Of a stretch of 39,192 nucleotides of DNA, positions 1 to 39,192 are shown one piece after another. The stretch is taken from IMG/VR virus record IMGVR_UViG_3300026488_000006, positions 1 to 39,192 of that record; one strand, written 5' to 3'. The translations under genes were made by a program, and so were the position numbers. The stretch's first letter is position 1. Every line of letters starts with the position of its first letter. The stretch comes from a virus. Under the pieces are notes generated by a model. It was not told the DNA's origin, made no database searches, and saw nothing but the letters and a program-made list of their open reading frames with translations.

Positions 1-127
1 CTGCCGGACCGATGTTCCGGGCCTCGACCTCAAGGCGACCGGTGTTCAGCTCGACGGTAGCAGTCCAACGCCCCACATCGGGCTCAACGTTCACGTCGAG
101 AACCTCAATCTTAAACCGCCTCTTCCT
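1..127. repeat. Terminal direct repeat, copy 1 (identical to 39066-39192); circular-permutation overlap
   Basis: Read directly: nt 1-127 are identical to the last 127 nt of the window. Confidence 0.9.
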
Positions 128-137
128 TGGCATTAAA

Positions 138-1802
138 TCACCTCCTAACGACCTGTTTAAGATATGCCGTCGCCTGCGCGAGCTTCGGGCGTAGGAACGG
201 GTAAGGACCGCGGGTTATCACGACGGCCTCGCGGGCGCGAGTTAGGGCTACATACCAAACGCGCACCTCCGCCTCGAAATCCTCGCGGTCGCCCTCTTCG
301 AGCTCCGTGCGAATCCTCGGCGTGATGGTATCGTAAATTATCACCACGTCGGCCTCACGCCCCTTGGCCGAGTGAATAGTATCAATGTAGATTTCACCAG
401 CCGGCTTCTCCATCCGGCCATTAAGCCGAGCGCGCAACGCTTCGAGGGCAACCTCGGCTAAGGACTGACTACCAAGCGCCTCGGCCACCTTCTCCGGCTT
501 GAGCGGGCCGAGCGGGTCGCGGATTATCTTCTCGGCCAGTAGGTTTGATGGGTTAGCTGTGAGAACCTCGACGGCGCGGTCGAGCTTCGGGCCTTCGAGC
601 CCGGTGAGCCTAAGGTAAAAGCGCGCGTCGGAGCGGAGCGGTGGCTTCCTCTCCTTGAGCGTCTCGATGAAGTTCTCAATCCTGTCCACGAAGTCCTTCC
701 ACACCTGCATCCGGCGCGTCTTGAAGCGGTAGAACGGAACGCCCTTCTGGAGGAAGAGCTCTTCGAGGTCCTTCACCTGGCTGTTCGTGCGCGCGAGCAC
801 CATAACGGAGAAGCCCTTCCGCGCGAGGAGCAAGGCGTTGTCCGGGATACTCATAAAGTCTATGTCGCGCATCAACACCTTTCCACCCCGCACCCTCGGC
901 TGAAACTTCTTCGGGTAGCGGTTGCGGACGAAGAGCTTGACGAGGAGCTGTGAGGCGAGGAGCACTTGGGATGGTAAGCGGAAGGAGCGCTTGAGGACGA
1001 CAGTCTCGTCGGCGGGGAACTCGTGGAGCAAGAAGTCCGGAGAGGCGCCCTGGAAGCGGAAGAGCGTTTGGTCATCATCACCACTGATGATAGTAAATTC
1101 AGTGTCCACCATCCAGTTCTTAAAGACCTCCCATTGGAGCGGGCTGAAGTCCTGGAACTCATCCGCGATGAGCACCGGGCGCTCCGGGTGCACATCCGTG
1201 ACGAACGCCAGGGCGAGGATGTCATCGAAGTCTATGATTTTCTCGCGCCGTTTGAACTTGAGCCATTGCTCCGCAAGGACGCCCCACTCCTCGTTTTCAG
1301 CCATCAACTTGTCCACGACACGTCCGAGGTTTAAGAAGCGCGGGAAGTAAACGTTGACGGCGTAAGTGTAGGCGTTGAAGAACTGGTTGCCGGGCAGAGT
1401 CGTGAGCTCCTCGTTGGGGTCATAAGGGACGCCGACCTCGCGGGCGAACTTGGCCTTCCACCAGCCGACGGCCCCGGGCTTGCCGAGCGTCCGGCTGACC
1501 ACCCGGGGCGAGACAATGCGGGCAGAGCGGAGTAGGTGAAGCGCTATGCCGTGCATCGTGCCAAAGAGGCCCGCGCGGTAGCCACGCCGGAAGCCGACCC
1601 TGCCGACGAGCTCGTCAACCGCACTGTTGGTGAAGCTCATAAGGACGACTTCGCGGGGCGAGTAGGCCTTGTGCGGGAGGTCGAGGTCGTACTCTGCGAG
1701 CCACTCCGAAGCGTCGAGCCGGCCGGTTAGGTGGCCGAGTATCTGCGTGAGCGCGTAGGTCTTCCCCGTGCCCGGCGGGCCGAAGATTCGGAGGTTCACC
1801 AC
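138..1802 (-). CDS. Superfamily 1 DNA helicase, UvrD/Rep/PcrA-like
   Basis: Walker A GPPGTGKT; motif II ADEFQDF; motif III GDDDQTLFRFQGA; motif V TIHSAKGREADVV; motif VI VALTRAREAV. RBS GGAGGGGTGAT precedes the GTG start; the gene stop overlaps the RBS of the next gene across the origin. Confidence 0.85.
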   Translation of the reverse strand: MVNLRIFGPPGTGKTYALTQILGHLTGRLDASEWLAEYDLDLPHKAYSPREVVLMSFTNSAVDELVGRVGFRRGYRAGLFGTMHGIALHLLRSARIVSPRVVSRTLGKPGAVGWWKAKFAREVGVPYDPNEELTTLPGNQFFNAYTYAVNVYFPRFLNLGRVVDKLMAENEEWGVLAEQWLKFKRREKIIDFDDILALAFVTDVHPERPVLIADEFQDFSPLQWEVFKNWMVDTEFTIISGDDDQTLFRFQGASPDFLLHEFPADETVVLKRSFRLPSQVLLASQLLVKLFVRNRYPKKFQPRVRGGKVLMRDIDFMSIPDNALLLARKGFSVMVLARTNSQVKDLEELFLQKGVPFYRFKTRRMQVWKDFVDRIENFIETLKERKPPLRSDARFYLRLTGLEGPKLDRAVEVLTANPSNLLAEKIIRDPLGPLKPEKVAEALGSQSLAEVALEALRARLNGRMEKPAGEIYIDTIHSAKGREADVVIIYDTITPRIRTELEEGDREDFEAEVRVWYVALTRAREAVVITRGPYPFLRPKLAQATAYLKQVVRR

Positions 1803-1803
1803 A

Positions 1804-2757
1804 TCACCCCTCCGCGTCGTTCACGTAATCCCAGTCCCCAAAGTCGGTGCGGGTGCGCTCGATAGCCGAGAGAGCCTCATCAATCTCCGAGTGCGCCGGC
1901 TTGAGCTCGCGCTCCGTGAGCTCGACGAAGACCGCCTCTGGCACGAGGTAGTAGTACGGCCTCTTATATCCCACTCTAATCTGGCGCCTCTCGATGCCGA
2001 ACTTCCTAAGCGTCTCCGCGAGCTTCTTGATTGAAGTGATGCCCAGCATTGAGCGAGCCTTCTGACGGACGAGGCGCGCAAGGACGGCGTAGTACTTCCC
2101 GCGCTTGTCCACGTAAATCATCGCCTCGGGCACGGTCGCCTTGTCCTTCGCGCTCTCAAGGCTGATGGGCGGATAGAGGTCGTAGAGCTCTGCCATCAAC
2201 TCACCGACGCCGATGTCATCCTCGCGCACCATCACGGCTTGCTCGAAGGCGCGGGTAATCAACTGTTGAAGCTGGTCAACGCGCTCGCCGTCCTCGGTCT
2301 GATAGGTGCGCAGGATAATTGGGACATTGAAAAGCTCAAGCGTGAAAGAAGCAATCTCGCCGAGGACGGAGCGACGGTCAGAGGCGATGGATTTGACCGG
2401 GATGATAAGAGGCTCGTCCTTGCCGTAGAAGTAGATTTTAAGCTCCCGCGTCGCGCGGTTGTAGAGGATTTTATCCGCAAAGCTCAGCATCAGCGACACG
2501 GGGTCCGTCGCGACCAGCGGGCAGTTCATGATGTCACAGACTTCCGGGGCGACTTGGTTCACGCTGAGGCAGGAGAACGGCCTCGTAGCCCCCTTGGCCT
2601 CGCGGAAGAGCTCGCTCGCGAGGTCGTCCCCGGCCAGCTCGGCCACGTCGTTGTACTTCGGCTGGTACTCGTGGATGTAAGCCAGCACGAGCTCCTTCTC
2701 CTCGCCCGTGAGAGTGCCCTTTTCAAGGAGCGCCCTAATGCACGGAGGGAGGCTCAT
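1804..2757 (-). CDS. Hypothetical protein (317 aa) with a Cys cluster (CLSVNQVAPEVCDIMNCP); possible replication-associated protein
   Basis: RBS GGAGGTGAGGGT before ATG; its stop overlaps the helicase start. Function not recognisable. Confidence 0.6.
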   Translation of the reverse strand: MSLPPCIRALLEKGTLTGEEKELVLAYIHEYQPKYNDVAELAGDDLASELFREAKGATRPFSCLSVNQVAPEVCDIMNCPLVATDPVSLMLSFADKILYNRATRELKIYFYGKDEPLIIPVKSIASDRRSVLGEIASFTLELFNVPIILRTYQTEDGERVDQLQQLITRAFEQAVMVREDDIGVGELMAELYDLYPPISLESAKDKATVPEAMIYVDKRGKYYAVLARLVRQKARSMLGITSIKKLAETLRKFGIERRQIRVGYKRPYYYLVPEAVFVELTERELKPAHSEIDEALSAIERTRTDFGDWDYVNDAEG

Positions 2758-3347
2758 ACCCTCACCTCCATCACCGCCTCGTAGGCGACCTCCTCGCTAA
2801 TGAGCCCCTTATTTATAATATATAGTAGGTATCCAGCAACGTCTCTCTGCCTCAGCGGGAGCTTCACACCACGCCTCCAGAGCTCGTCGAGGAGGTAGCG
2901 CGAGGCGACCACGAAGAACACCTGTGGCTGGCGGAAGTTGTAGTTGAACGGGCCGAGGCGGAGAGTTGGGCCGAAGTGGAACTCCACGACGAGGTAACGG
3001 GCGACCGGTATCTCACCACGCTCAAGGCGGGCGTCCTTGAGCATACGCTTAAAGGCCTCAAAGGGGTCGGCGAACGGACAGGCCTTCCGGCGCTCCTCGT
3101 TGCAGTACTTCTTCAGGTGCTCCGGCTTTGCACCGAAGGGGCACGGAAAGAGCGGGGCGGTGTTCAGCATCGCCCGAATCCCGCGCTTCCTCTGTTCATA
3201 AGTATCGAAAGAGTAGTAGCCGAGGCTCCAGAGGGCCGGCTCAAGCTTTTCGTCGCCGAAGGTGTGGAAAAAGGATAAGAGGTCGTCGAGGGCCTCGGTG
3301 TCGCGGGCGGAGATGGCGTTTTTGACGCACTCCGGGAGCTCACTCAT
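2754..3347 (-). CDS. Hypothetical protein (about 197 aa) with Cys-rich segment (CPFGAKPEHLKKYCNEERRKACPF)
   Basis: Track ORF 2754..3419; start moved to the ATG at 3347, which follows RBS AAGGAGGTGG; the upstream part of the track ORF is probably untranslated. Confidence 0.55.
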   Translation of the reverse strand: MSELPECVKNAISARDTEALDDLLSFFHTFGDEKLEPALWSLGYYSFDTYEQRKRGIRAMLNTAPLFPCPFGAKPEHLKKYCNEERRKACPFADPFEAFKRMLKDARLERGEIPVARYLVVEFHFGPTLRLGPFNYNFRQPQVFFVVASRYLLDELWRRGVKLPLRQRDVAGYLLYIINKGLISEEVAYEAVMEVRV

Positions 3348-3522
3348 CGTGAGCCACCTCCTTGCGGACGACCAGCTTGTCGGCATAAACCTCGACCTTG
3401 ACGCGCTCGGTGTTGCCAATCCACCAGCGCGGGATGCTTATCCTCGGCGAGGTCCGGAACCTCTTGTCGAGGTACATTACCTTCCTTTCGAGGACAGCAG
3501 TCGGCTTCTCCATACGCACCAC
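3340..3522 (-). CDS. Small hypothetical protein (60 aa), first gene of the origin-spanning minus operon
   Basis: C-terminal codons contain the RBS of the next gene and its stop overlaps that gene's ATG (ATGAGTGA); TATA-like ATATTTAAGG lies upstream on the minus strand. Confidence 0.4.
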   Translation of the reverse strand: MVRMEKPTAVLERKVMYLDKRFRTSPRISIPRWWIGNTERVKVEVYADKLVVRKEVAHDE

Positions 3523-3708
3523 CGGGCATTAGTTAGTGCACTTCTCCTTAAATATCTTGCGAAAGCAGTTCCGTTTAACGCCGGCGGGCTTGTTAATTAG
3601 GCAAACACTTCTGTTTAACACTAGGGCAAGAGTTAGGCGCCACCGTTGCTGTGGGTCAGCCAGCCTCGACGGGCGCCGAAAATCCGGGGTAGCCAGCCAC
3701 TCTACATT

Positions 3709-4233
3709 GTCTTCACGTCATCGCAACGGGGCCCGGCGTTGCGGTGATGAAGACACATAGGTTTAAACTTGTCCGTTTTGTTACCCACTTCTGTTCCTAT
3801 GATGTGCTTATGTGGACGCCGAAAAAGGTAGGAGCGGGCTTTTTCGGTGTACAAAAGTGTTCTGAAGACAAAATCGCTTCTCACGAAGACACGTAATAAG
3901 GTGATGAAGACACAAAGGTTGACCTTATCACGGAAACAAGAGAGGGCTTTTTTGCCCATTTTAAAGGTAGGAGAATGCCGTTTCAATGTACAAAAGTGTT
4001 CTGAAGACAAAACCACTTCTCACGAAGACACGTAATTTCGGGCCCTGCTCCACTGACAGTAGTACTGCATCACCATAGGCCAGCATTACCAACGGCGGTG
4101 GCTCAACGCTTTGCTGGAAAAAATGTGCACATCTGGGGAATCAAGGTCAACCCCGTGTCTTCATCACTTTGTTACGTGTCTTCGTGAGAAGCGATTTTGT
4201 CTTCATCACCCCCATTACGTGTCTTCGTGAGAA
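3709..4233. repeat. Iteron array / putative replication origin or master regulatory region
   Basis: Two 49-bp direct repeats (3849-3897, 3988-4036); GTGATGAAGACAC at 3744-3756 and 3901-3913; inverted copies at 4155-4167, 4172-4209 and 4214-4233. At least 11 GAAGACA cores in about 525 bp, switching orientation around a 120-bp centre. Confidence 0.6.
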
Positions 4234-4335
4234 CCCAAAACAAGGGTATTTTTGGCTTATATGGTTAAACATGTGTGGTTTTACGGCGACTGTCTAAAAA
4301 CCGTAAAAAAGAAGTTAAGTCCCGGCGCTGGATGT

Positions 4336-5565
4336 CTAGAGCCACTGCCCCAACCGGTGGTTTTTGGCCACATCGCCAAGCTCCCGCTCAAACCTCCGCC
4401 TTATGATTTCGCAGTAGTCCGGATTCATCTCGATACCGACCCAACGCCTACCGAGCTTCTCCGCCACGACGAGAGTAGTCCCTGCTCCAGCAAACGGGTC
4501 GAGGACTACGCCGTCCTTCGGGCAAGCGACCTTAATTAAGAGCTCCGGGACGTCTGGCGGGAAGACCGCAAAGTGGGCGTCCTTGAACGGGCGGACGTTT
4601 ATTTGGATAACATCATTCGGGCGGACTTTGTAATCCCCCTCTCGTATCTTGCGGGCTATTCCTTCGTTGATTTCTCTAGAGCTCCTCGGATAAAGTTCGC
4701 CCTTGTTGTGAGGGCCAACTCTCCAGCGATACTTGGCTCGTTCCCGGGTCAATTCTGACGGTTCTGGTGCGACGGCTTTCCAATCAAAATAATACTTCGG
4801 CCTCTTCGTGAAGTGGAAGATGTACTCCCAGCTGTGGCTGAAGCGGTCTCTGACTGATTCGGGCATGGCGTTACCCTTCGTCGTCCTGTCTTTGTAAAAG
4901 TGCACTTTCTTTGCCCAGATTATTTTCTCCCGCAGAATCCAGCCCTCGTCGTAAACCATCTTGACGGCGAAGAGTTCAGGCACGAGAGCGAGGGACTTTT
5001 TCTTTAGTCCATCTGGCCACGCAACCTTTGGGACGTTGCTCCTCCCGTTCCACTTCGGGTCGTTGTCGTTGCCGAGACCATAACCGTGCCCACCACCAAC
5101 CCACGTGTCGTCAATGTTCACGAAGAGGCTCCCCGTCGGCTTGAGGACACGCTTGACCTCACGGAAAATCTCGACGAGGTGCTCGACAAACATCTGAGGA
5201 GTCGGCTCAAGGCCGAGCTGTCCATACCACGCCCCGCACTTCTTACAGATGAGGGCCGTCCGCTTGTTATACTTCTTTATCCGGGTCGTGCCCCTCGCTC
5301 CGACCACTTCGTCCTGCTTCCCGCGGACGTTGTTTCTGTTCTCGTGCTGAAGGCCAACTTCTTGCCCCACCCACTCGTGGTCGCAGTCCGGGTCGCCTCC
5401 AAAGACGGTGAACGTGGCGTCGCCGTAGTCCCTCTTGGCCCAATAGGGTGGAGAAGTAATTACCACATCCACGCTCTCATCAGGGAGATAGCGGAGCACT
5501 TCGAGGGCGTCTCCACAGTAGAGCCTGCCGAGCCGGGTTTCGAAGTAGGGCTCCATTCCAACCAT
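4336..5565 (-). CDS. DNA methyltransferase, beta-class amino-MTase (N6-adenine or N4-cytosine)
   Basis: Motif IV SPPYW near the N-terminus and motif I DPFAGAGTT near the C-terminus (order IV then I is the beta class). Track ORF 4336..5586; likely start is the ATG at 5565 after RBS GAGGTGGTG. Confidence 0.85.
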   Translation of the reverse strand: MVGMEPYFETRLGRLYCGDALEVLRYLPDESVDVVITSPPYWAKRDYGDATFTVFGGDPDCDHEWVGQEVGLQHENRNNVRGKQDEVVGARGTTRIKKYNKRTALICKKCGAWYGQLGLEPTPQMFVEHLVEIFREVKRVLKPTGSLFVNIDDTWVGGGHGYGLGNDNDPKWNGRSNVPKVAWPDGLKKKSLALVPELFAVKMVYDEGWILREKIIWAKKVHFYKDRTTKGNAMPESVRDRFSHSWEYIFHFTKRPKYYFDWKAVAPEPSELTRERAKYRWRVGPHNKGELYPRSSREINEGIARKIREGDYKVRPNDVIQINVRPFKDAHFAVFPPDVPELLIKVACPKDGVVLDPFAGAGTTLVVAEKLGRRWVGIEMNPDYCEIIRRRFERELGDVAKNHRLGQWL

Positions 5566-5576
5566 CCCGCACCACC

Positions 5577-6314
5577 TCACAGCCACCCCTTCTCGGCCTC
5601 AGCCTCCAGGAAGTCAAGAACCGAGCGGAGGCACTCCTTCAGCTTGGCAACCTTCGCCCGCCTCTGCTGGACCTCCTCGTCGCTCTCGCCGGCGCGCTTC
5701 AGCGTGAGCGTGTCGAGCATCAGCCTGAGGTACTTCGCGTGGGTCCTTGCCTCGTCGAGGCTGTCGCCGTGCACCTGGATGAGGGACTGTCCGTTGAACA
5801 GCACCGCGTCGGCGCCGAAGCGGTAGCCCGCGATGACCACCTCGTCCACGCCCCTGATACCGCTGTCCGGGTCGGCGAAGACCAGGAGCGCGACGGCGCG
5901 GTCGGTGCGGGTGTGTTCATCGAGCTCGACCGGCCCGTGACTACCGGTTAAGCGAAGGCGGTAGATGACTTTCCCGGGCACGGCCACGGCGACGGCCCTG
6001 TCGAGCTCGAACGCCGGGTAGCCGGCCAGCTGGAGCGCCCTGGCGAACACGCGGTTTGGCCCGAGGAGCGTCCAGCCGTACTCTGGGTCGCCCCACTCCT
6101 CGACGAGGCCGGACAGGGACCTTATGAGCTCCCCCAGCGCCTGCTTCGTGAGCGGTAGCCTGTTCTCCTGCCAAAGCGAGCGGAGCTTTTCGGCCAGCTC
6201 GGCCACGCTCTCGCTGTCGGCCACGGCGTCCGCTATGTCGTGGTAGAGCCGGACGAGCTCCGCCCTGTCGGGAATCACTATGTGGTCGAGCTCGTAGCGC
6301 GCCACCTCACGCAC
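5577..6314 (-). CDS. Hypothetical protein (245 aa) immediately upstream of and overlapping the methyltransferase
   Basis: Co-oriented, 3' end overlaps the MTase start; no convincing nuclease motif seen. Confidence 0.55.
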   Translation of the reverse strand: MREVARYELDHIVIPDRAELVRLYHDIADAVADSESVAELAEKLRSLWQENRLPLTKQALGELIRSLSGLVEEWGDPEYGWTLLGPNRVFARALQLAGYPAFELDRAVAVAVPGKVIYRLRLTGSHGPVELDEHTRTDRAVALLVFADPDSGIRGVDEVVIAGYRFGADAVLFNGQSLIQVHGDSLDEARTHAKYLRLMLDTLTLKRAGESDEEVQQRRAKVAKLKECLRSVLDFLEAEAEKGWL

Positions 6315-9549: not shown

Positions 9550-10803
9550 TCACTTGGAGCTTAGTGCCTTCGCCACGCTGACAGCCACGACGGCCCCAAC
9601 GCCGAGCATGATGAAGTTCGCCATCTTGTCCAGGGCTGAGCCACCGCCACCACCGCCTGAGCCACCGCTCGGCTTGGTCGCGTTGGCCACGTCGGTCACG
9701 TGCTTGAGGAGCTCCTGACAGGCGGGGTTGTTCGGGTCGCTACACGCGCTCGTCACGAAGTTGATGTACTGGCTGAAGGCCTCGGCGCGCTTCTTGTCGG
9801 CCTCGGCGTAGATTGCGTCCACCCTGACGACCTTGACCGCGAAGGCGATGGCTATGACTATCACCGCCAGCGCCACGAGGACGTAAACGACCGGCATGAG
9901 CTCCGGCCCGAGCGAGCCCGCCTTGACCACGGGCACGAGCACGGTGTAGGTGCCGTCATGGTTCTTGACGATGTACGGCCCACGGAGCTTCTGCCCGGCG
10001 TAGGTGTACTCGTAGGTCGTGTCAACAACGAACCCCAGGGGCGCCACCATCTTGGCCGTCTCCTGCACGGCCCTGGCCAGCACGTCCTCCATCTTGGGGC
10101 ACTTCTTGATGATGCCCAGCACTTTCTGGCACTCGTCCTCGACCGTCACGGCCAGCACGGCGCGGTTGGAGTTCAGCAATACGCCCGGCGGGGTCATTAG
10201 CGACGCCTGGTAAGCGACCCAGTAGTAGCCACGCGGGATTGTGACCCCGAACTTCTGCTCGAACTCCTGTATTGTCTCCTCGGGCACGCTCGCGTTGGGG
10301 AGCCTCAGCCTGGACAGCATGACGCCGTTCTGCCAGTCGGTCACCTGGTCCTTGAGCTCGCGCTCCGGAGGCTGGTTTGGCCCGGCGTACTTGAAGCCGA
10401 TGACCGTCGAGTAGTCCACGAAGAGCACTGGCACGGCGTCAATGACGTTCACGCAACCCACGTCCGGCACCGGCAACACGGGGCCATGAGCGTTGGGGCT
10501 CTTCTGACCGCACACCTCGTGGCTGAAGTACTGGTACATTGCGAGCCACAGGTTGGGGCTCGTCCAGAGCGCCACGTCCCCATTCTCGCCGTGGATGGTT
10601 TTCTTTTTCCAGCTCGGCTTGGCCTCGGGAATCTCGCCGGTCTCAACGTCGAACGGTACGTATGTGGCCCGGTAAGTGCCCTGCCACGCTCCCCGTGCGA
10701 GGAGCACCCAGAGCGCGTAGGTCAGCTTGTCCATCGGCTTTGATGGGTCAACCGGCGTCAGCCCGACCGCCTCGACGTAGCTCATCCTGTCCTTGTAGCT
10801 CAT
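9550..10803 (-). CDS. Putative membrane-anchored virion/envelope protein (417 aa)
   Basis: RBS GAGGTGA before ATG; internal hydrophobic helix; Gly-rich linker (SGGSGGGGGGS) followed by a C-terminal transmembrane anchor. Confidence 0.6.
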   Translation of the reverse strand: MSYKDRMSYVEAVGLTPVDPSKPMDKLTYALWVLLARGAWQGTYRATYVPFDVETGEIPEAKPSWKKKTIHGENGDVALWTSPNLWLAMYQYFSHEVCGQKSPNAHGPVLPVPDVGCVNVIDAVPVLFVDYSTVIGFKYAGPNQPPERELKDQVTDWQNGVMLSRLRLPNASVPEETIQEFEQKFGVTIPRGYYWVAYQASLMTPPGVLLNSNRAVLAVTVEDECQKVLGIIKKCPKMEDVLARAVQETAKMVAPLGFVVDTTYEYTYAGQKLRGPYIVKNHDGTYTVLVPVVKAGSLGPELMPVVYVLVALAVIVIAIAFAVKVVRVDAIYAEADKKRAEAFSQYINFVTSACSDPNNPACQELLKHVTDVANATKPSGGSGGGGGGSALDKMANFIMLGVGAVVAVSVAKALSSK

Positions 10804-10818
10804 CTCTCGTCACCTCGG

Positions 10819-11682
10819 TTATTCCTTGTGGGTGGCCTTCGCGAGGGCGTAGGCCGTCACCAACCCGGCTCCAAGGAGCGCGAGGCCGGCTAAACTATTT
10901 TTTTCCTCCGTCGTGTTGACCCCGGGGCCGGGCCCCGGCCCGGGCCCCTCTGCCGGCTTTATCTCGACAGTTATTGTATTCTGGTAGGCGAGCCGGTCAT
11001 CGACATAAACTTTCACGACTGCCTGTATCGTCCCCTTTGCGTTCTTTGGTATTTGGATGGGTAGGTTAAAGCGGGCTCCATAGGCGCCCTTTGTCGTCAC
11101 CGGGCCGGACTTCACGGTTCCAAACGGCGTGTCCATCTCGGCGAGGAACTTGTGGGTGTTGTAGTCATTCAGCACGCGGGCGTTCACAGTGACGGTTAGG
11201 GTTCCACCCGCCTTGACGGAGCTCGGCGCATTTATGCTCACGTCAACCTTTGGTAGCTGGTACTCGCCTGCCTTGACCTTTGCGCTGGCTATTAGTGTCC
11301 CGCTCGGCACGTCGGCAGGGCTGGCGAAAGCAACGATGGTAACGCCTTCCTCCGGCATCGTTATGTAGCCAACGGTCGCGATTTGGCACTTGTTTAGCTT
11401 AACGGCGCCGAGCTTTGTCCCCTTCTTGTTGCTCGCCGTGATGTAAGCATCCGGCCCTGTCCCCTTAGCGTACCAAACCTCAATGGTCACCGGGAAACTC
11501 TTCCAAATGGCCCAGTCCGGCACGCCGACGATAACCGGCACCTTCTGCCCCGGAGGTGCCGAGGCTGGCACATTGAGTATCTCTTCGGGGCACGGCTGGG
11601 GGGTCGGTTCGGGGCCGGCCTGGCTAACGTTCACCCCAAAGGACTTGGTATCAACAACGTGCCACTCCGCCATCTCCATCAC
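10819..11682 (-). CDS. Putative surface protein (about 285 aa) with C-terminal TM anchor
   Basis: N-terminus MAEWHVVDTKSFGVNV is paralogous to the N-terminus of 12185..12496; PGPGPGPG linker then hydrophobic anchor. True start is probably the third ATG (about 11673). Confidence 0.6.
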   Translation of the reverse strand: MMEMAEWHVVDTKSFGVNVSQAGPEPTPQPCPEEILNVPASAPPGQKVPVIVGVPDWAIWKSFPVTIEVWYAKGTGPDAYITASNKKGTKLGAVKLNKCQIATVGYITMPEEGVTIVAFASPADVPSGTLIASAKVKAGEYQLPKVDVSINAPSSVKAGGTLTVTVNARVLNDYNTHKFLAEMDTPFGTVKSGPVTTKGAYGARFNLPIQIPKNAKGTIQAVVKVYVDDRLAYQNTITVEIKPAEGPGPGPGPGVNTTEEKNSLAGLALLGAGLVTAYALAKATHKE

Positions 11683-11686
11683 CCCC

Positions 11687-12136
11687 TCAACTAAGCAATA
11701 ACAACATGGCGCCGGCGATTAGCCACCAGGGAACGTTCCCTTCCTCCTGAGCTTCCGCCTGGGCCGTTGCCCCCTGTTTGGCGGTGGGCCCGAGGATGGT
11801 CACCGCGAACGTCGCCGTGCCGAGTAGGCGCCCGTACTTGTCCCTTACTTCGAGGGTAAACGTTCTCTTACCGCCCGGGACTGTTCCCTTACACGCAATT
11901 GGATACCCTGTCACCGTGCGTCCGGGAACGACCGTGCACCCCGGCACTTGGACTGCTAAACGGACGATGGTTGGTGGCTGGAGGTCCCTTATCGGGCCCG
12001 CGCGCCACTCGTAGCCCATGCCCTTCAACACGAGGACTGCGTCGAAGGGTACGGGCGCGCCCTTAATCTTGACCCAAACTGTCATGACTTCGCCCGGCCT
12101 ATAAATCTGCTTCTCGGGTATGGCTTCAACTTCCAC
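11687..12136 (-). CDS. Putative membrane-anchored protein (149 aa)
   Basis: RBS AAGGAGGTGAT before GTG start; C-terminal hydrophobic anchor (VPWWLIAGAMLLLLS). Confidence 0.55.
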   Translation of the reverse strand: MEVEAIPEKQIYRPGEVMTVWVKIKGAPVPFDAVLVLKGMGYEWRAGPIRDLQPPTIVRLAVQVPGCTVVPGRTVTGYPIACKGTVPGGKRTFTLEVRDKYGRLLGTATFAVTILGPTAKQGATAQAEAQEEGNVPWWLIAGAMLLLLS

Positions 12137-12538: not shown

Positions 12539-12850
12539 TTATTTGAGCGCCTGGATTAGATACTCAATGAGCGTGATAATTGCCCCTAAAACTGAAATTG
12601 CGCCCCACAAGCGGTTCCTATCCCGTTCGAGGCGCCGGATGCGCTCCTCGTGGTCTTTGAACTTTTCGTCGTGCTCGCTTTTGATTTCCCCAATCATCCG
12701 GGCCACAGAGTCGTTGTTCTCATCTATCTTCCTGCTGAGTTGCGTTAGCATTTCTTTCACCCACTCCATATCCGTGGACAACTTTGCCATAGCAACGGCG
12801 AGCCCTTCCTTCGATAGCAAGCTGGCGTCATAATTGGTTTTGTCATCCAC
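12539..12850 (-). CDS. Coiled-coil protein with C-terminal TM helix (103 aa)
   Basis: RBS GGGGGGTGA before GTG start; heptad-like charged region; hydrophobic C-terminus. Confidence 0.5.
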   Translation of the reverse strand: MDDKTNYDASLLSKEGLAVAMAKLSTDMEWVKEMLTQLSRKIDENNDSVARMIGEIKSEHDEKFKDHEERIRRLERDRNRLWGAISVLGAIITLIEYLIQALK

Positions 12851-12864
12851 CCCATCACCCCCCG

Positions 12865-13155
12865 TTAATCCCAGTCTTCCATTTCAGACCGCTTGTCATT
12901 AACGAGGACCTTATGGAGGGCATCATGGAGCTGGGCAACGTCCAACTTGAGCGCCTCAACGTCGCCAACAAGCTTCCGCACTTGTTCCTTCAGGAGCCTA
13001 ACGTCTTCTTCGAGGTCTCTGATGGACTTTTCCAACGCGGTGACGCGCTCCTCCTTAACGGCCCTTCCTGTTTTTTCCATTAACCACTTTGCCCCAATGA
13101 GGGCGAGCGCCCCACCGGCCAACGTTGACACGAAAGCGCCGAGGTCAAACGCCAT
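12865..13155 (-). CDS. Small membrane protein with N-terminal TM helix and coiled coil (96 aa)
   Basis: RBS GAGGTGAAGGAG before ATG; N-terminal hydrophobic segment. Confidence 0.5.
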   Translation of the reverse strand: MAFDLGAFVSTLAGGALALIGAKWLMEKTGRAVKEERVTALEKSIRDLEEDVRLLKEQVRKLVGDVEALKLDVAQLHDALHKVLVNDKRSEMEDWD

Positions 13156-13525: not shown

Positions 13526-13996
13526 TCACGGGAATGTTATTGTGACGTAGATGTCGAGCAAGATGGTGTTGTCCTTCGTTATGGCGGGGTCAATGTTCAC
13601 GTGGTTGATGAGCGTGCCGGTGGTGTAGTCGTTGCCGTCCGTGTGCTCATAGATGCCCGCCTCGGTATAGGTGTAGCCGTTCGCCTCCTCGGGCATGTAG
13701 CGGACGTAGTACTGCACCGTGTTGTTGCTGACCGTCAGCTGTCCGGTCTTGGCAGTCGAGGCGACAGGCTGGAAGAGGCCGGTGTCGCTCTCGCTGGGCG
13801 TCCCGGAGCCGGTACCGAGGACCAGCATCCAGTTTGAGGAGCCCTGGCTGTTGCCCCACGCCTGCGCCAGTAACTTCTTGAACTCCGTCGTTAGGACGTT
13901 CTTGCGCTCCACCTCGTCCAACACGGCGCCCGTGCGGGCGTCCCTTATGACGAACTTCCAAACGGCCTTGGCTGTGGCGGTTTCCCCAACCTTCAC
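13526..13996 (-). CDS. Putative structural protein (156 aa), paralog A of an adjacent pair
   Basis: RBS AAGGAGGTGAT before GTG; shares motifs with 14009..14713 (VLGTGSGTP.SD.TGLF, RYMPEE.NG.T.TE.G.YE, KD.T..D.YV.I). Confidence 0.6.
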   Translation of the reverse strand: MKVGETATAKAVWKFVIRDARTGAVLDEVERKNVLTTEFKKLLAQAWGNSQGSSNWMLVLGTGSGTPSESDTGLFQPVASTAKTGQLTVSNNTVQYYVRYMPEEANGYTYTEAGIYEHTDGNDYTTGTLINHVNIDPAITKDNTILLDIYVTITFP

Positions 13997-14008
13997 GTTA
14001 TCACCTCC

Positions 14009-17563: not shown

Positions 17564-17574
17564 TGCTCATCACC

Positions 17575-18159: not shown

Positions 18160-18163
18160 AGTA

Positions 18164-18727: not shown

Positions 18728-18731
18728 CCCC

Positions 18732-21442: not shown

Positions 21443-21649
21443 CTCAACACCACCTCCAGTGGTTCTTTTTGTTGCCGGGTTTCGGCCCCCGGTAGGGCTC
21501 CCGGTCTCGTTCTCTGTGTATGTTTTTTGCAAAAGAGATATTTATGTCTTTCGCTCCGCAAAACCCGCCCTTTGCAGAAAGCAATGTTTCGCATGTGGTT
21601 GGTCAACGGTTGAGTTTACAAATGTAAAAGAAAAGGTTGCGTGGCACAG

Positions 21650-22174: not shown

Positions 22175-22184
22175 AAGCACCACC

Positions 22185-29932: not shown

Positions 29933-29969
29933 ATAAGAGAGAACGAAGAATGTGATAGAGGTGGTCGTG

Positions 29970-30323: not shown

Positions 30324-30325
30324 CC

Positions 30326-30512: not shown

Positions 30513-31598
30513 GTGGACGACGAGGAAAAGCGCGAGAAGGCCGGGGAAAACCGCCCCGACGACTTCAGCGAGCTCGACGACCTTTTAGAAGCCCTTATGG
30601 GCGCCGAGGAGGTGGCAGAAGACAGCCAAAGCGAGGAACCACCCGACGACGCCAAAGAACCACCCGCCGAACCCAAACACAGAAAGTACGCCCCAAACCC
30701 GTACAGCAAAATCAAAGACATCCCCGAAGACTTCCTCACGTTCCTCCTTGAGACGGACGCGAAGTGGGCAAAGCGCAAGCTGTGGCGCGGAATCATCAGA
30801 AGCATCTACGAGAACCCGCGCGCGCACTCGACAGACATTGCCAAGCTCCTCGACACGACGCCCTCCACCGTCATGCGCACCGCCGAGCGATATAGGGCTA
30901 TGTGGAACGAGCTTCGCGAGGACTACGAGGAGTGGAAGCGGAAGCTTGAGGAAGGCGTCCCGGGCGAGTTAGAGTCGAAGCTCCCACCAACCAAAGCCCC
31001 TTCCCCACAGCCGGCCCCGGAGCCGGCGCCGAAGAAGCGTGGGGGCTCGAAGAGCTCTACGGGTGGCGAGAAAGAAGAAAAAATCCCGCAGAAGCTCTAC
31101 GAGTTCACCAAGAGCACGACGACCTTCAAAGAGATTGATAAGACGCTTAGCGAAGTGCTCGGTGCTCAGTTCCACGATACGGCGGTTAGAAAGGAAGTTT
31201 ACGCCCGGCTCGGCGAACTGCTGATTTTCAGCCTCCTCCAGCTCGGTGTGGTCGAGCGTGATAAAATAGTCGCCTACTCTGAACAGCTCTCGACCGACCC
31301 GGACAGGCTCTACGAGTACGTCAAAAACCAGCTCGACGCCGTTCTCCGCTTAACCGACGCCGAGACGCTCCAGCGCGTCTGGGTCGAGCTAACCGCGCTC
31401 AGGCGCCAGGTCAGGGCACTCGAAGCGACCGCCGACATGCTCAGCGACACGCTAAAAGAGTACGAGGACGCCATCCGGTTCCTCATGGGTCTTCTCACGC
31501 GCGACCAGCTCGAAAAGTTCTCCGCGTATGTGTTTATGAAGGAGTTTATGAAGCAGTACGCGCCCCTGCAGGGCGCCGTTCCTGGAGGTGGTAGATGA
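30513..31598 (+). CDS. Hypothetical protein (361 aa) with acidic N-terminus and a helix-turn-helix-like segment; possible transcription regulator
   Basis: RBS GGGGGTGG before GTG; segment RAHSTDIAKLLDTTPSTVMRTAERYRAMWNE resembles an HTH; C-terminal codons form the next gene's RBS. Confidence 0.55.
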   Translation: MDDEEKREKAGENRPDDFSELDDLLEALMGAEEVAEDSQSEEPPDDAKEPPAEPKHRKYAPNPYSKIKDIPEDFLTFLLETDAKWAKRKLWRGIIRSIYENPRAHSTDIAKLLDTTPSTVMRTAERYRAMWNELREDYEEWKRKLEEGVPGELESKLPPTKAPSPQPAPEPAPKKRGGSKSSTGGEKEEKIPQKLYEFTKSTTTFKEIDKTLSEVLGAQFHDTAVRKEVYARLGELLIFSLLQLGVVERDKIVAYSEQLSTDPDRLYEYVKNQLDAVLRLTDAETLQRVWVELTALRRQVRALEATADMLSDTLKEYEDAIRFLMGLLTRDQLEKFSAYVFMKEFMKQYAPLQGAVPGGGR

Positions 31599-32779
31599 TG
31601 GAAGCCGTGCAGGTCGAAAAGACCGCCGAGGAGGCGCCGACCGAGGTGCCGAAGCTCGAAGAGTTTCTCCCCGTCGGAGAAGCCCAGCCCGCCGAGGAAA
31701 ACGCCCCAGAGCTCCCGAAAGAGGTGCAGAACCAGATTGCGACGACAATCGTCCAGGGCCAGATGGCCGGCCTAAGCGAGGAGGAGATAAAGGAGAAAAT
31801 CAAGGAGCGCTACGGCCTAAGCGACGAGGAAGCTGAGCTCACGATGCAGATGATAATGAAGTACCTCGACCGCTCCCAGAGACAGGAATACGAGCTCAAG
31901 AAGACCGCACTCGGAATGATGCCGGCGCTCGCGGAGACTATGGCGCAGAGCCAGAACCCGCTCGCCCCGCTGATTATGCAACGCCTCATCGAGATGGCCG
32001 GATTCAAGGAGGAGAAAGACGACTTCGTGAAGGACATCGTGGAGGCGAAAAAGCAACTCTACAAGGTCAAGATGATAAGCGAGGTGCTCAAGGACGACGA
32101 GGGCAAAAAGTCCGGCTCGTTCGACGCGCTCATCCTTGAGATGATACGTCAGATGGAGCGGGAGAAGGCCGAGGCCCAAAAGATGCTCTACCAGCTCCTC
32201 CTTGAGGAGCGGAACAGGAAGGACAGTGGGGAGACCGAGGCGCTAAAAGAGGCACTCGTGAAGTTCATAGACGCGATAGACCAGCGCCTCGAAATGATGA
32301 TGGAGATGATACAGGAACAGAAGAGCACGCCGGTCAACGGGGGCCCGCGCTACAAGGACCCGCTTGAGGAGCTTTTGGAGCACCAGCAGAAGCTCAACCA
32401 GCTCCTTGAGACCCTCGAAAAGGCCGGGCTCGTGAAGCGCAACGATGACGAGTCCAGCCTCCTTGAGGCTCAGCTAAAGCTCAAGGAGTTCGAGCTCAAG
32501 CAGAAGGAAGTCGAGGCGAAGCAAATATTCTACTCGAAGCTCGCCGAGGCGCTGAGCAACCCACAGACGCTCCGGGTCATCTTCGACGGGCTCAGAGGCA
32601 TCTTCGCCGGGCTCCTCGGTAGGGCGCCGAGCCCACAGACCTTCAACAACGCCCTCGCTCAAGCACCTGTCCAGGCGCCGGCCCCCACGCCGGCCCCCGT
32701 CCCCAAGCCAGAACCGCCGGCGGACATTCCGAGCCTTGAGGAGTTCGTCCAGCAGGCCGGGGGTGAGGGTGGTGGCTGA
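31595..32779 (+). CDS. Coiled-coil rich hypothetical protein (394 aa)
   Basis: RBS GGAGGTGGT; ATGA overlap; E/K/Q/L-rich heptad-like sequence; Pro/Ala-rich region near the C-terminus. Confidence 0.6.
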   Translation: MMEAVQVEKTAEEAPTEVPKLEEFLPVGEAQPAEENAPELPKEVQNQIATTIVQGQMAGLSEEEIKEKIKERYGLSDEEAELTMQMIMKYLDRSQRQEYELKKTALGMMPALAETMAQSQNPLAPLIMQRLIEMAGFKEEKDDFVKDIVEAKKQLYKVKMISEVLKDDEGKKSGSFDALILEMIRQMEREKAEAQKMLYQLLLEERNRKDSGETEALKEALVKFIDAIDQRLEMMMEMIQEQKSTPVNGGPRYKDPLEELLEHQQKLNQLLETLEKAGLVKRNDDESSLLEAQLKLKEFELKQKEVEAKQIFYSKLAEALSNPQTLRVIFDGLRGIFAGLLGRAPSPQTFNNALAQAPVQAPAPTPAPVPKPEPPADIPSLEEFVQQAGGEGGG

Positions 32780-32987
32780 ACCGAACCCCAAGACAGTCGC
32801 AGTCTTCCGCTGGCTCGCCCAGACGCTCCGGGCGGGCTACAACAACCCCGCCGTGCTTTTGAAGGCGAAAGATGAGATAAAGAAAAACGAAAAGGTGATT
32901 GAGGGGGCGGTGAGGGATGCCATTCGGCCCGAATTTGAGGAATACGTCGAGCTCGTTAAGTCCCTCCTCGGCGGAGGCTCAGCTTGA
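32772..32987 (+). CDS. Small hypothetical protein (about 71 aa)
   Basis: Track ORF 32736..32987 begins at a TTG; an in-frame GTG at 32769/32772 follows RBS GGTGAGGGTG and is the more likely start. Confidence 0.45.
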   Translation: MAEPNPKTVAVFRWLAQTLRAGYNNPAVLLKAKDEIKKNEKVIEGAVRDAIRPEFEEYVELVKSLLGGGSA

Positions 32988-33306
32988 CAAAGCGCTTGAG
33001 GAGTACGACCGACTCTTTCAGGAGGAGTTCGAGCGGAAGAAGGCGATTTGGCTCAAGATGACGCAGGAACAGCGCGACCAGTACACCCGCACCGTGCTCG
33101 GCCGGATACTCAAGAAGGCCAAGGAAAACCCGCTTGAAGGACTAAAAGCCTTTGCCCAGCTCATAGGCTCGCCAGAGGGTGTTTTGGTGTGGGCCAACAT
33201 CTGGAAGCCGGAGTACTGGCCTTACGTGGCGGAAGTTACCGGGGAGGCCTACAAGCTGATGGTGAAGTTCGCCGTGCTCAGTGAGGTCGGGGGTGGGCAG
33301 AAGTGA
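32917..33306 (+). CDS. Hypothetical protein (up to 129 aa), start uncertain
   Basis: Overlaps the previous ORF by about 70 nt in the +1 frame; alternative start at ATG 33058 has a weak RBS; end is well defined (GTGA overlap with the next gene). Confidence 0.4.
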   Translation: MPFGPNLRNTSSSLSPSSAEAQLDKALEEYDRLFQEEFERKKAIWLKMTQEQRDQYTRTVLGRILKKAKENPLEGLKAFAQLIGSPEGVLVWANIWKPEYWPYVAEVTGEAYKLMVKFAVLSEVGGGQK

Positions 33307-36320: not shown

Positions 36321-37130
36321 TCACACATTCGAAATCACCTCAGTAAGGCTTTTCTGACGGGAGTTTTGGAACCCATCTAATAACCGAACCCAATGGAGTA
36401 CTCTCTGTCGTATCTGCATCCAGATAGGCTTAGAGTTCTTCACGCGGTCAATACCATACCTATATGCCAAACTGTCCGCCGAGTAAAGAGCTTCTCTCAC
36501 GTCAGGATACCTGAGCACTCCAAACTTTACTCCAAAAGCGTGCAACTTAACCCTCCTTGGTGTCGCTTCTCTTATTGCGAGTATGTATCTCCGTATTTGC
36601 GGTTCTTGCCCGCGCCGGCACATTGTGCCGAGGCCGAGAAGTTCAGTCAGGAGACCATGCTCCTTCATATAATCGAGCATCCAGAGATAGTCGTCAAGCG
36701 CCCACCCCTGCAATACTGCCACAAAGTGCTTCTTAAGTTCAGGATACTGGTCGTCAATTAGATTCTGAATTACAATCTGGTTTTCTATCGTTTTCATCTG
36801 ATTTTCTCGAACCGTGCGACCCCACTTCTTGCGGACTTCCGGTTCGCACGGATAATCCCTATTCGCAAAGAGGACATTCTCAAAGCGTCCAGAATTGAGC
36901 TGACGAAGGACAAACTCAAGGTAGCGCTCGTGTGGGTCCGGGTATTCTTGCATGCGGTAAAAAAAGCTGAAGCCTCCGCTGTCAATGAACAACCAGCTTG
37001 TGTTCCTAGGTGGGGTTCTAACTCTGGAAGCATAGTTAATCATAACATTGAACTTGCGCGGAGCGAGGCTTTCAAATGCCTTTTTTGCTGAACCATCCCC
37101 CACACCAAAAAAGAAACTAAACACGGCCAT
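36321..37130 (-). CDS. TGT-family transglycosylase, DpdA-like (7-deazaguanine DNA transglycosylase candidate)
   Basis: Motif WLFIDSGGFSFF matches the tRNA-guanine transglycosylase active-site motif (E. coli Tgt ILTDSGGFQVF); downstream blocks align loosely with TGT (VAVLQG, LLGLGTM, YSADSL); no CxCxxC...H zinc site. Track ORF 36321..37271 starts at a TTG; ATG at 37130 follows RBS AGGAAGGAGCGTG. Confidence 0.7.
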   Translation of the reverse strand: MAVFSFFFGVGDGSAKKAFESLAPRKFNVMINYASRVRTPPRNTSWLFIDSGGFSFFYRMQEYPDPHERYLEFVLRQLNSGRFENVLFANRDYPCEPEVRKKWGRTVRENQMKTIENQIVIQNLIDDQYPELKKHFVAVLQGWALDDYLWMLDYMKEHGLLTELLGLGTMCRRGQEPQIRRYILAIREATPRRVKLHAFGVKFGVLRYPDVREALYSADSLAYRYGIDRVKNSKPIWMQIRQRVLHWVRLLDGFQNSRQKSLTEVISNV

Positions 37131-37296
37131 CACGCTCCTTCCTAAGTGTTGCAATAAAGCACTCGTCGAAAAACTCACAAGCTTCACAGAGCGAGTCGCC
37201 CTGAAAGTCTCCAAAGCAAGGCGGTAGTTCCTCAGCGCCCTCATTGTCGAATTCGCCCCAAACCTCTCCAAAAACCGTTATGAGAACCTTAGCCAC
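37117..37296 (-). CDS. Small Cys-rich protein (59 aa), possible metal-binding
   Basis: Not in the ORF track. GTG start after RBS GGGGGTGACGGGGC, directly after the upstream stop; C-x11-C-x2-C-x5-C; overlaps the dpdA-like start by 14 nt in another frame. Confidence 0.35.
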   Translation of the reverse strand: MAKVLITVFGEVWGEFDNEGAEELPPCFGDFQGDSLCEACEFFDECFIATLRKERDGRV

Positions 37297-37880: not shown

Positions 37881-37891
37881 ACACCCCCGAC

Positions 37892-38395
37892 TTATCCTTC
37901 AACCATTATCCAACGCTCCCGGCGGGCGTACTGCGGGAGCATGACGCGAACCCACCACTCGACGAAGGCCCAAGGCACGTGGTAGCCCTTTCCCGGGACG
38001 TAGAAGTCGCGGGGCTCGTAGCCGTTGCGGTAGCACCACCACTTAAAGTCGTTGCGGAGCGTGTATTCGCCGACGACGTGACGGTAGCGCCTCATCAGCT
38101 CGCTGAGCTTCACGCGCCGGCCCTCGCAGAGCGCATACTCGGTCACGAGGTCAAAGTGCCTATCTGGCTCAGTCGGCGTCCGCTCGTCAACCAGCATCTC
38201 CTCGTAGCGCACCTTTGCCCAGAAGTGGTTCTTGAGCCAGTGCTTTTCGAGGGCGTCAATGTAGTGGTAGGCCGTGTGCACCTGGTAGCCTCTGACGAGC
38301 CACAGGTAGGCAAAGTAGGGGCCGGCCCGGACGAGCCAGCCGTGGCGGAGGGTTAGTCGCTTAAACTTACCCATAGACACCACCCTGCGAGCCAC
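37892..38395 (-). CDS. Trp/Tyr-rich hypothetical protein (about 160 aa)
   Basis: RBS GGAGGTGG upstream; true start probably the ATG of MGKFKRL. Confidence 0.5.
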   Translation of the reverse strand: MARRVVSMGKFKRLTLRHGWLVRAGPYFAYLWLVRGYQVHTAYHYIDALEKHWLKNHFWAKVRYEEMLVDERTPTEPDRHFDLVTEYALCEGRRVKLSELMRRYRHVVGEYTLRNDFKWWCYRNGYEPRDFYVPGKGYHVPWAFVEWWVRVMLPQYARRERWIMVEG

Positions 38396-38472
38396 CTCCT
38401 TCGGTAGAACTTATGTTTAAACTTATTAAAAGCTTTGCGGTTGGGGAATGCAAAGGTAGGATTTTGCAAAAG

Positions 38473-39192
38473 TCAATGCTCGGGGTAAGCCACGACTAAA
38501 AACGGGCCGACGCACCAAGTGTCGAGGAGCGCGAACTCGTAAACCGGCGTGTAGCCGGCCCTCTCGCCGACACGGCGGACTATCTCCTCGGCCTCTTCGA
38601 GGTCGTCGGCCCAGCCCTCGTACTCCTCGCCGGAGACCGTGTTCTTCACCACGATGCGGTAGCCAGCCGGCTTTTGCTTTTTGAACCGGCGCATCTTCTC
38701 CCAGCGCTCCGGCCAGGTCTTCCTCCACTCTGCCTCGCGCTTCTGCCACTCCGAGAGGTCGCCAGTGCGTTTCTCGTTGCGCGGGAGCTGGACGCGCTTT
38801 GAAAGGGCTTTCATCACCATCGCCAGCGCAAACGGGCCGAGCTCCCTGTTGAAAAAGCGGACGCGGACGAAGGCACCGGGGCGCTCAGCAACGAAAAAGT
38901 ACGCGACCTTTGGGTCGTCGGGCAGGGTGGCACCTTCCCTCACGAGCTCGTCCCAGAGCTCGTCGCGACCTGAGCGGAGCTTCCAGCCGGCGAAGTGCCT
39001 CAGCCCAATGCCCAAAAGCGGGCCGAGCCCCTGCCTGTTCATACCCAACAATAGCTTTTCGGCTTCTGCCGGACCGATGTTCCGGGCCTCGACCTCAAGG
39101 CGACCGGTGTTCAGCTCGACGGTAGCAGTCCAACGCCCCACATCGGGCTCAACGTTCACGTCGAGAACCTCAATCTTAAACCGCCTCTTCCT
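38473..39192 (-). CDS. Hypothetical protein (about 241 aa), wraps across the window boundary
   Basis: Track ORF 38473..39159 starts at a GTG; in circular coordinates an in-frame ATG at the position equivalent to 131-133 follows a strong RBS (GGAGGTGATTTA) just after the helicase stop. The first two codons lie outside the window end but are present at 128-133. Confidence 0.55.
   Translation of the reverse strand, partial: RKRRFKIEVLDVNVEPDVGRWTATVELNTGRLEVEARNIGPAEAEKLLLGMNRQGLGPLLGIGLRHFAGWKLRSGRDELWDELVREGATLPDDPKVAYFFVAERPGAFVRVRFFNRELGPFALAMVMKALSKRVQLPRNEKRTGDLSEWQKREAEWRKTWPERWEKMRRFKKQKPAGYRIVVKNTVSGEEYEGWADDLEEAEEIVRRVGERAGYTPVYEFALLDTWCVGPFLVVAYPEH
39066..39192. repeat. Terminal direct repeat, copy 2 (identical to 1-127)
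   Basis: Read directly; implies a unit length of about 39,065 bp. Confidence 0.9.

Follow-up and report, generated by a model that had tools for sequence, protein, structure and literature searches.

A circular 39-kb element with two single-jelly-roll proteins and no recognisable packaging ATPase: a possible membrane-containing polyhedral virus of hyperthermophilic archaea

A complete circle with a conserved virion-type operon

The DNA considered here, called the window throughout, is the whole of the IMG/VR virus record IMGVR_UViG_3300026488_000006, a stretch of 39,192 nucleotides. In what follows we describe the element it represents, a conserved pair of single-jelly-roll (SJR) proteins that it encodes, and the kind of virus to which these proteins could belong. 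The two ends of the window (1..127 and 39066-39192) are identical, forming an exact 127-bp direct terminal repeat that represents an assembly overlap, and identical proteins are encoded by an independent ENA MEGAHIT k141 contig of 39,206 bp (39,065 + 141). The excess of 141 bp is the k-mer overlap to be expected of a circular genome, and with two assemblies in support the window is taken as a complete circle of 39,065 bp; terminal redundancy is the alternative reading of the repeat. Neither tRNA genes nor Rfam families were found in the window, and megablast of 25 kb of it against phage and plasmid collections gave no match. The genes lie in three blocks, namely a long one on the minus strand (28.6 to 0.14 kb), one on the plus strand (28.6-35.3 kb) and a short one on the minus strand (39.16 to 35.95 kb).

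Within the long minus-strand block, a virion-type operon of about 20 genes and 13 kb runs from approximately 22.7 kb down to 9.5 kb. It includes, on the minus strand, the genes for jelly-roll protein 1 (19832..20515; 227 amino acids [aa]), a candidate major capsid protein, and jelly-roll protein 2 (19050..19709; 219 aa), a candidate second capsid or penton protein. Both were modelled as single jelly rolls of about 220 aa, and the top structural match in the PDB is a capsid shell protein. One of the two appears most like the shell protein of a motor-less polyhedral archaeal virus. The structural matches of jelly roll 2 include plant-virus coat proteins, the STIV (Sulfolobus turreted icosahedral virus) major capsid protein, VP4 of Sulfolobus polyhedral virus 1 (SPV1), P1 of PM2 and P3 of PRD1; no match to SPV1 VP10 was seen among them, and proteins of the P23-77 type are not among the top structural matches of either jelly roll. 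By sequence, the two proteins gave only sub-threshold or unannotated matches in PHROGs, 48 distant members of the jelly roll 1 family matched no known PHROGs family, and hhalign detected no relationship between jelly rolls 1 and 2. Searches of the PDB with three core-protein profiles and with the products of 1804-2757 and 2754-3419 returned chance matches only.

The jelly-roll pair is among the most conserved parts of the element, with 66-84% identity as against 25-60% for most other genes. We found 19 homologues of jelly roll 1 and 22 of jelly roll 2, all of them metagenomic, on contigs of up to 47 kb, and an exhaustive profile search of 1.84 billion proteins placed the jelly roll 1 family in 69 clusters at 50% identity. 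In at least ten independent metagenomic contigs, likewise of up to 47 kb, the core genes keep a fixed order: a large protein (1436-1867 aa; truncated or absent in some), proteins of ~176, ~176-189 and ~141-174 aa, a membrane protein of 143-149 aa, jelly roll 1, jelly roll 2, a protein of ~104 aa and, in several relatives, one of ~187 aa. Downstream of this core comes a variable set with beta-helix, ConA-like DUF2341 or propeller-type proteins, the first two being of kinds to which receptor binding has been ascribed in archaeal viruses of vents (PMC12934983). More complete relatives also keep the helicase, the two genes beside it, the DpdA gene and the module at 30513-33306, which are described below. 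No description of this family was found in the literature searched, an absence of evidence only, and the virus family is apparently undescribed.

The remainder of the operon, all on the minus strand, is consistent with a virion module. At its upstream end lie three conserved proteins of 174, 189 and 176 aa (21008..22715), two of them, within 21008-22219, strongly basic, which we infer to be candidate DNA-condensing or core proteins. Next comes a conserved, glycine-rich, membrane-associated protein of 145 aa (20530..20967), encoded immediately upstream of the jelly-roll genes, and a gene for 143-149 aa occupies this position in every relative examined. On the other side of the pair are five small, conserved, beta-rich core proteins of 103, 141, 218, 187 and 104 aa (16839..19046), found also in the relatives' contigs L009, L011, L013 and L002. 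One of these genes (18164-18727) has a weak counterpart in the head module of Haloarcula tailed virus 2, namely gp010 (30% identity, E = 2e-4), which is annotated as hypothetical and whose gene lies between those for the portal and the prohead protease. The adjoining 496-aa protein (15345..16835) had no family match. It carries beta-propeller-like repeats and belongs to the variable host-recognition part of the module, in which relatives have a beta-helix protein or a ConA-like DUF2341 lectin in its place. The C-terminal half of the 496-aa protein contains five repeats of the type 'IYELSPxDFSxxR' spaced about 45 residues apart, a pattern suggestive of a propeller-like binding domain.

Further downstream, two paralogous fibre-like proteins (13526..14713) show homology to ORF164 and a weak match to the N-terminal domain of phage tail-collar fibres, and are probable receptor-binding proteins. 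Their ORF164-like relatives are encoded by the betalipothrixviruses AFV3, AFV6, AFV7, AFV8 and AFV9 (28-32% identity), whose genomes are also of about 40 kb, and this kinship suggests a filamentous virus of the realm Adnaviria as another reading. The same reading draws on a helical pair of 129 and 136 aa, encoded side by side (32917-33713) and similar in size to the usual capsid-protein pair of such viruses. Adnaviria genomes are linear, however, whereas the window is circular; the capsid fold of betalipothrixviruses is different; neither PHROGs nor Pfam links the helical pair to capsid proteins of rudiviruses or lipothrixviruses at E <= 1; and 33303-33713, which encodes one of the pair, is not conserved in relatives. 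A betalipothrixvirus identity was rejected, the ORF164-like genes being the only family held in common with AFV9, and we regard membership of Adnaviria as very improbable. The first of the two helical proteins belongs to a divergent but conserved plus-strand module (30513..33306) which encodes a helix-turn-helix (HTH)/coiled-coil protein of 361 aa, an acidic coiled-coil protein of 394 aa and the helical protein of 129 aa.

The operon ends with genes for membrane-anchored proteins. Two small proteins, each with a coiled coil and a single membrane anchor, are DUF7201-like (12539..13155), and three more, of 417, 287 and 149 aa, are anchored C-terminally and lack signal peptides (9550..12136). The 287-aa protein is immunoglobulin-like, and 11687-12136 is kept in relatives L002 and L013; a scan of IMG/VR with the single protein encoded by 9550-10803 found nothing. 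We propose that these three are virion membrane or sub-shell proteins. Altogether, the window encodes approximately eight to nine membrane-anchored proteins, and in several of them the anchor is C-terminal and a signal peptide is lacking, an arrangement that would fit a membrane assembled inside the cell.

Absence of packaging, integration and conjugation genes

An earlier note on this DNA, made from the letters and their open reading frames (ORFs), had remarked that the window contains no recognisable integrase, packaging ATPase, DNA polymerase or conjugation ATPase. We searched a set of 53 chosen ORFs with the profile hidden Markov models (HMMs) of Pfam, PHROGs and NCBIfam, rescanned about 40 of the proteins singly at E <= 1, and additionally scanned 63 ORFs in alternative frames with Pfam; the absences given here hold at the sensitivity of profile HMMs. 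All four of the reported absences were borne out. No integrase or transposase was found among the 53 ORFs with the three collections or among the 63 alternative-frame ORFs with Pfam, and in the window no terminase, portal, HK97 capsid or double-jelly-roll capsid protein, no FtsK/HerA, VirB4 or TraG ATPase, no relaxase and no DNA polymerase or recognisable primase domain was detected. The single-protein rescans added nothing further, the one match among the alternative-frame ORFs was at chance level, and so were the terminase PHROG matches (E = 0.035-0.28). The functional matches in the whole set were to the superfamily 1 (SF1) helicase, an N6/N4 methyltransferase, a DpdA-like protein, a region labelled 'primase' in PHROGs, the tail-fibre-like paralogues, DUF7336, an HTH domain and coiled coils.

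A six-frame scan of the window for Walker-A motifs left the GPPGTGKT of the SF1 helicase as the sole credible P-loop, in agreement with the statement that this is the only NTPase motif. The string GVVQAGKT in the product of 19050-19709 was considered as a P-loop and rejected, since it is unconserved among the 22 homologues and sits in a beta-sandwich.

The same searches uphold three of the note's negative classifications. A tailed virus is contradicted by the lack of terminase, portal and HK97 capsid protein, a PRD1-like virus by the lack of a double-jelly-roll capsid protein and of an FtsK/HerA ATPase, and a conjugative element by the lack of VirB4, TraG and relaxase. The further statement that there is no HK97 or double-jelly-roll candidate is literally true, but it passes over the two single-jelly-roll capsid candidates. 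In having two adjacent jelly-roll genes in a structural core together with predicted membrane proteins, the window resembles the Halopanivirales and the 'Kalaviridae' and 'Shyamaviridae' of Thermococcales (PMC12934983); unlike the window, these encode an FtsK/HerA packaging ATPase, and genome size and replication genes differ as well. A preprint on the Thermococcales vent virome names about 19 virus families, of which the icosahedral ones have genomes of 8-29 kb with an ATPase and/or a double-jelly-roll capsid protein (PMC12934983), and none of the families fits the window.

The note had also taken the many membrane-anchored proteins to fit a spindle-shaped, pleomorphic or vesicle-borne lifestyle. 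The anchored proteins are real, and with the missing packaging ATPase and the relationship of the helicase to those of Thermococcales plasmids they speak for such an element. Some other plasmids of Thermococcales have been reported to be transferred in vesicles. The parts that define the lifestyle are absent, however. No small, strongly hydrophobic two-helix capsid protein of the kind found in spindle-shaped viruses was present, since a heuristic test found no ORF of >= 40 aa with two strong hydrophobic helices in any coding-consistent frame, and the conserved 145-aa membrane protein is only weakly hydrophobic (maximum Kyte-Doolittle 1.74). Nothing in PHROGs or Pfam tied the window's proteins to those of fuselloviruses, pleolipoviruses or viruses of the PAV1/TPV1 type, and an integrase, typical of fuselloviruses, is lacking. 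As this reading would also leave the conserved jelly-roll core unexplained, we consider it improbable.

The absence of an integrase had led to the suggestion that the element is probably episomal. A scan of 185,579 species-representative genomes for integrated copies, made with the profile of jelly roll 1, came back empty, in keeping with a non-integrated state. The suggestion holds for the window but may not hold throughout the family: the distant relative L022, a 44.9-kb contig with the same core, encodes a tyrosine recombinase (L022:5378-6283), to which nothing in the window matched by tblastn. With a recombinase in L022 and none in the window, integration would be an accessory trait in the wider family. 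A small protein of L022 (L022:12992-13153), whose signal peptide is of archaeal class III (pilin-type), likewise has no counterpart in the window. Overall, the profile searches described above brought to light no divergent integrase, terminase, or HK97 or double-jelly-roll capsid protein.

Replication, modification and the giant protein

The helicase gene (138..1802, minus strand) encodes an SF1, UvrD-like enzyme recognised by Pfam, PHROGs, NCBIfam and the Walker-A scan. Among annotated proteins it comes closest to the helicases that pTN2-family plasmids of Thermococcales and a Methanocaldococcus vulcanius plasmid encode, being about 31% identical to them from end to end; no record of the exact sequence was found. 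Helicase aside, nothing in pTN2, pAMT7 or the T. profundus plasmid matches the window, the PolpTN2-type primase-polymerase included, and the pTN2-family plasmids, at 8-13 kb, differ from it in having no virion-type module.

Adjoining the helicase gene, in relatives as well as in the window, is a gene for a 317-aa protein with an N-terminal 'LPPC' motif (1804..2757, minus strand), in which four cysteines (C6, C63, C74 and C79) are invariant in orthologues at 28% identity. A weak match links it to PriL, a subunit of the archaeal primase, in the Fe-S domain at the C terminus; at E = 0.0027, short of the family cut-off, this is a hint only. The next gene (2754..3347, minus strand) encodes a second, paralogue-like 'LP(P/E)C' protein with four cysteines (C7, C69, C82 and C90) invariant in orthologues at 37% identity, starting at the Met of MSELPEC. 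A small conserved gene follows (3344..3529, minus strand; 61 aa). Its counterpart in L022, a gene for 59 aa in the corresponding place, is 46% identical, and indicates that the neighbouring gene truly starts at 3347 and not at 3419. The genome was not found to encode a catalytic primase subunit.

Between these helicase-module genes (138-3529) and the methyltransferase gene lies a non-coding stretch (3530-4335) with a repeat cluster at 3700..4240, where the GC content dips to 0.53. In this cluster, 74 nt are repeated directly (3824-3897 and 3963-4036; 88%), 51 nt recur in inverted orientation (3863-3913 and 4155-4205; 96%), and CGTGTCTTC or a one-mismatch variant occurs seven times within 480 bp, four copies on the minus strand being followed by three on the plus strand. 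We regard this iteron-like cluster as a putative replication origin or regulatory region.

Two enzymes of DNA modification are encoded on the minus strand, an N6/N4 DNA methyltransferase (4336..5586; PF01555, E = 1.6e-45; phrog_67) and a DpdA-like DNA-guanine transglycosylase of the 7-deazaguanine modification type (36321..37271; PF23859, E = 1.9e-20; phrog_1279), the latter 71% identical in relative L009. Since no genes for the synthesis of preQ0 or 7-deazaguanine are present in the genome, the precursor for DpdA would have to come from the host.

Upstream of the virion genes, the 1679-aa protein that is the hallmark of the family (22722..27761, minus strand) has one 93%-identical copy and relatives at 38-51% identity; a scan of IMG/VR with this single protein found nothing. 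Its residues 175-475 can be aligned to residues 1080-1352 of a polyvalent protein, 1964 aa long, in which ArdC-N, ArdA, YodL, M78-peptidase and LPD domains are present. The module of about 300 residues that the two have in common ends in an 'LK.HGFRW.P...AW' motif and relates the giant protein to the large polyvalent proteins of phages and conjugative elements; none of the ArdC-N, ArdA, YodL, M78 and LPD domains is detectable in the 1679-aa protein, and its remainder contains no recognisable domain. The 'primase' label that PHROGs would give this protein is unsupported, as no archaeo-eukaryotic primase, DnaG or TOPRIM domain is present and the matched region is the polyvalent-protein module. 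The same label is attached to the module, again without domain support, in phage records.

Both the helicase and the polyvalent module invite the view that the window is a non-viral plasmid with a cluster of surface-structure or adhesion genes which forms no virion. The helicase is of plasmid type, polyvalent proteins are typical of conjugative elements as well as phages, no hallmark capsid family was recognised by sequence, and communities without a recognisable capsid protein were classed as probable plasmids in a study of the Thermococcales mobilome (PMC12934983). Against this stand the 13-kb operon of jelly-roll, fibre-like and lectin-type proteins, in which recognition genes are swapped between relatives as is usual for a virion module, and the occurrence of homologues of operon genes in betalipothrixviruses and a haloarchaeal tailed virus. 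Moreover, the window has no conjugation or mobilisation gene, and one relative sits in the IMG/VR viral collection. We find a plasmid of this kind rather improbable, and the element is probably viral.

Two features of gene organisation may be added. Many of the proteins have glycine-rich C-terminal tails (GGG, GGGGK, GGEGGG and similar), encoded by gene ends such as those at 7359, 8057, 8317, 8643, 29335, 31598, 32779, 33306, 33713, 33997 and 35295. These likely arise because the gene that follows, which often overlaps, has its Shine-Dalgarno sequence (GGAGG/GGTGG) inside the upstream coding sequence, an arrangement that would indicate tight translational coupling. In addition, a 60-nt intergenic repeat (29688-29747 and 30323-30382; 80% identity) that contains the palindrome TTATAACCCGGTTATAA flanks the gene at 29952-30323 and is probably a repeated promoter or operator.

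The host can be approached through a few clues. The helicase hints weakly at Thermococcales or Methanococcales, the fibre genes at viruses of Sulfolobales, and no clue came from tRNA genes or proviruses, none of which were found. Several relatives carry sample codes (REYS20, JOHN19 and SPET22) which suggest an origin in studies of deep-sea hydrothermal vents. The GC content of relatives (L002, L009, L011, L013, L017-L019, L021 and L022) ranges from 43 to 57%, as compared with about 58% across the window, and this spread suggests that the family infects a range of hosts.

A motor-less polyhedral virus and its implications

The known virus that offers the closest parallel is SPV1, whose circular double-stranded DNA (dsDNA) genome, wound into a nucleoprotein coil, is covered by a lipid layer and then by a shell of two SJR proteins, VP4 as hexamers and VP10 as pentamers (PMC8459092, PMC8812541). 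SPV1 has no identifiable polymerase or replication initiator (PMC8459092), no packaging ATPase (PMC8812541) and no integrase (PMC8459092, PMC8812541); a membrane-containing polyhedral virus therefore needs no packaging ATPase (PMC8459092, PMC8812541). With the Portogloboviridae (SPV1 and SPV2) the window has in common a circular dsDNA genome, the lack of packaging ATPase, polymerase and integrase, a second jelly-roll protein, many membrane proteins, a methyltransferase and the setting in hyperthermophilic archaea (PMC8459092, PMC8812541). The differences are also considerable. The window measures 39 rather than 20 kb, comes from a marine vent rather than a terrestrial acidic spring, and has a helicase-centred replication module of its own, DpdA and the 1679-aa protein; its jelly rolls have no detectable sequence similarity to the SPV1 capsid chains, and equivalents of VP1 and VP10 were not identified. 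The window is thus not a member of the Portogloboviridae as that family is currently defined.

Taken together, these observations lead us to propose, with a probability of roughly one half, that the window is the genome of a membrane-containing polyhedral virus of SPV1-like architecture, which condenses its DNA rather than pumping it. In this proposal, the 39,065-bp dsDNA circle would belong to a virus infecting hyperthermophilic archaea of deep-sea hydrothermal vents, with its virion encoded by the long minus-strand operon (~22.7 kb down to 9.5 kb). The small basic proteins would probably coat or condense the DNA, while the tail-anchored membrane proteins would sit in an internal lipid layer and the two SJR proteins would form the outer polyhedral shell as hexamer-type and vertex-type capsomers, in the manner of VP4 and VP10 of SPV1. 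Several small beta-sandwich proteins and the conserved membrane protein would also be virion components, and the fibre-like paralogues and the propeller-like repeat protein could make up an exchangeable set for host recognition. Shell and membrane would come together around the DNA as a condensed nucleoprotein, with no pumping into a preformed capsid, and condensation during assembly would remove the need for a packaging ATPase.

For replication, host polymerases might be recruited by the module that combines the pTN2-plasmid-type SF1 helicase with the two PriL-like four-cysteine proteins, encoded beside the iteron-rich region. DpdA and the DNA methyltransferase could modify the genome against host restriction. 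The window's member of the family, which has no integrase, presumably persists or replicates as an episome.

Several points weigh against this proposal. No particle has been observed, and no homologue of a nucleoprotein was identified among the window's genes. The genome is twice the size of that of SPV1 and has no mini-CRISPR array. Even a 48-sequence profile gave no sequence link to SPV1 or to any solved structure in the PDB, and Foldseek searches of the predicted viral structures in BFVD returned beta-sandwich matches of low TM score (TM <= 0.35), mostly to tail and fibre proteins.

The strongest rival is suggested by these same matches. Jelly rolls are common in receptor-binding proteins, and the two described here could be spikes, turrets or adhesins on a virus of another or new morphotype, whose capsid consists of unrecognised proteins, for example as an enveloped helical nucleoprotein like that of globuloviruses. 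The many membrane anchors, the basic conserved proteins at 21008-22219 and the conserved helical module at 30513-33306 could all be accommodated in such a particle. However, the jelly-roll genes are among the most conserved of the family, whereas adhesins are normally the most variable and the variable recognition genes lie downstream, and the top PDB match is to a capsid shell protein. A virus with another capsid is, in our judgement, unlikely, and the SPV1-like polyhedral virus remains the reading that we prefer.

A broader claim may be put forward tentatively, and we hold it to be possible rather than probable. The window could represent a new and widespread lineage of archaeal viruses, at the level of a family or above, in which a polyhedral shell of two unrelated SJR proteins encloses a circle of 39-47 kb without a motor. 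It would be a larger, marine counterpart of the portogloboviruses, with the giant polyvalent-type protein and the PriL-like Fe-S pair as an unusual toolkit for replication or takeover.

At a practical level, the window illustrates that a contig without a viral hallmark by HMM search can still be viral, and mobilome surveys in which elements with no recognisable capsid protein are called plasmids may miss the present group. The SF1 helicase with its PriL-like pair, DpdA unaccompanied by a preQ0 pathway and the giant polyvalent-like protein are leads in their own right. SPV1 and SPV2, both isolated from acidic springs in Japan, are at present the only representatives of polyhedral dsDNA viruses that enclose their DNA without a motor. 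If the proposal is correct, this motor-less route of assembly would be neither rare nor confined to small genomes, given the 69 clusters and the genomes of 39-47 kb. The family would then provide material for testing the proposed path that leads from motor-less single-jelly-roll viruses to those with two SJR capsid proteins, and under the broader claim above it would be a living example of the 'ATPase-less SJR virus' stage from which the latter have been proposed to descend (PMC8812541).

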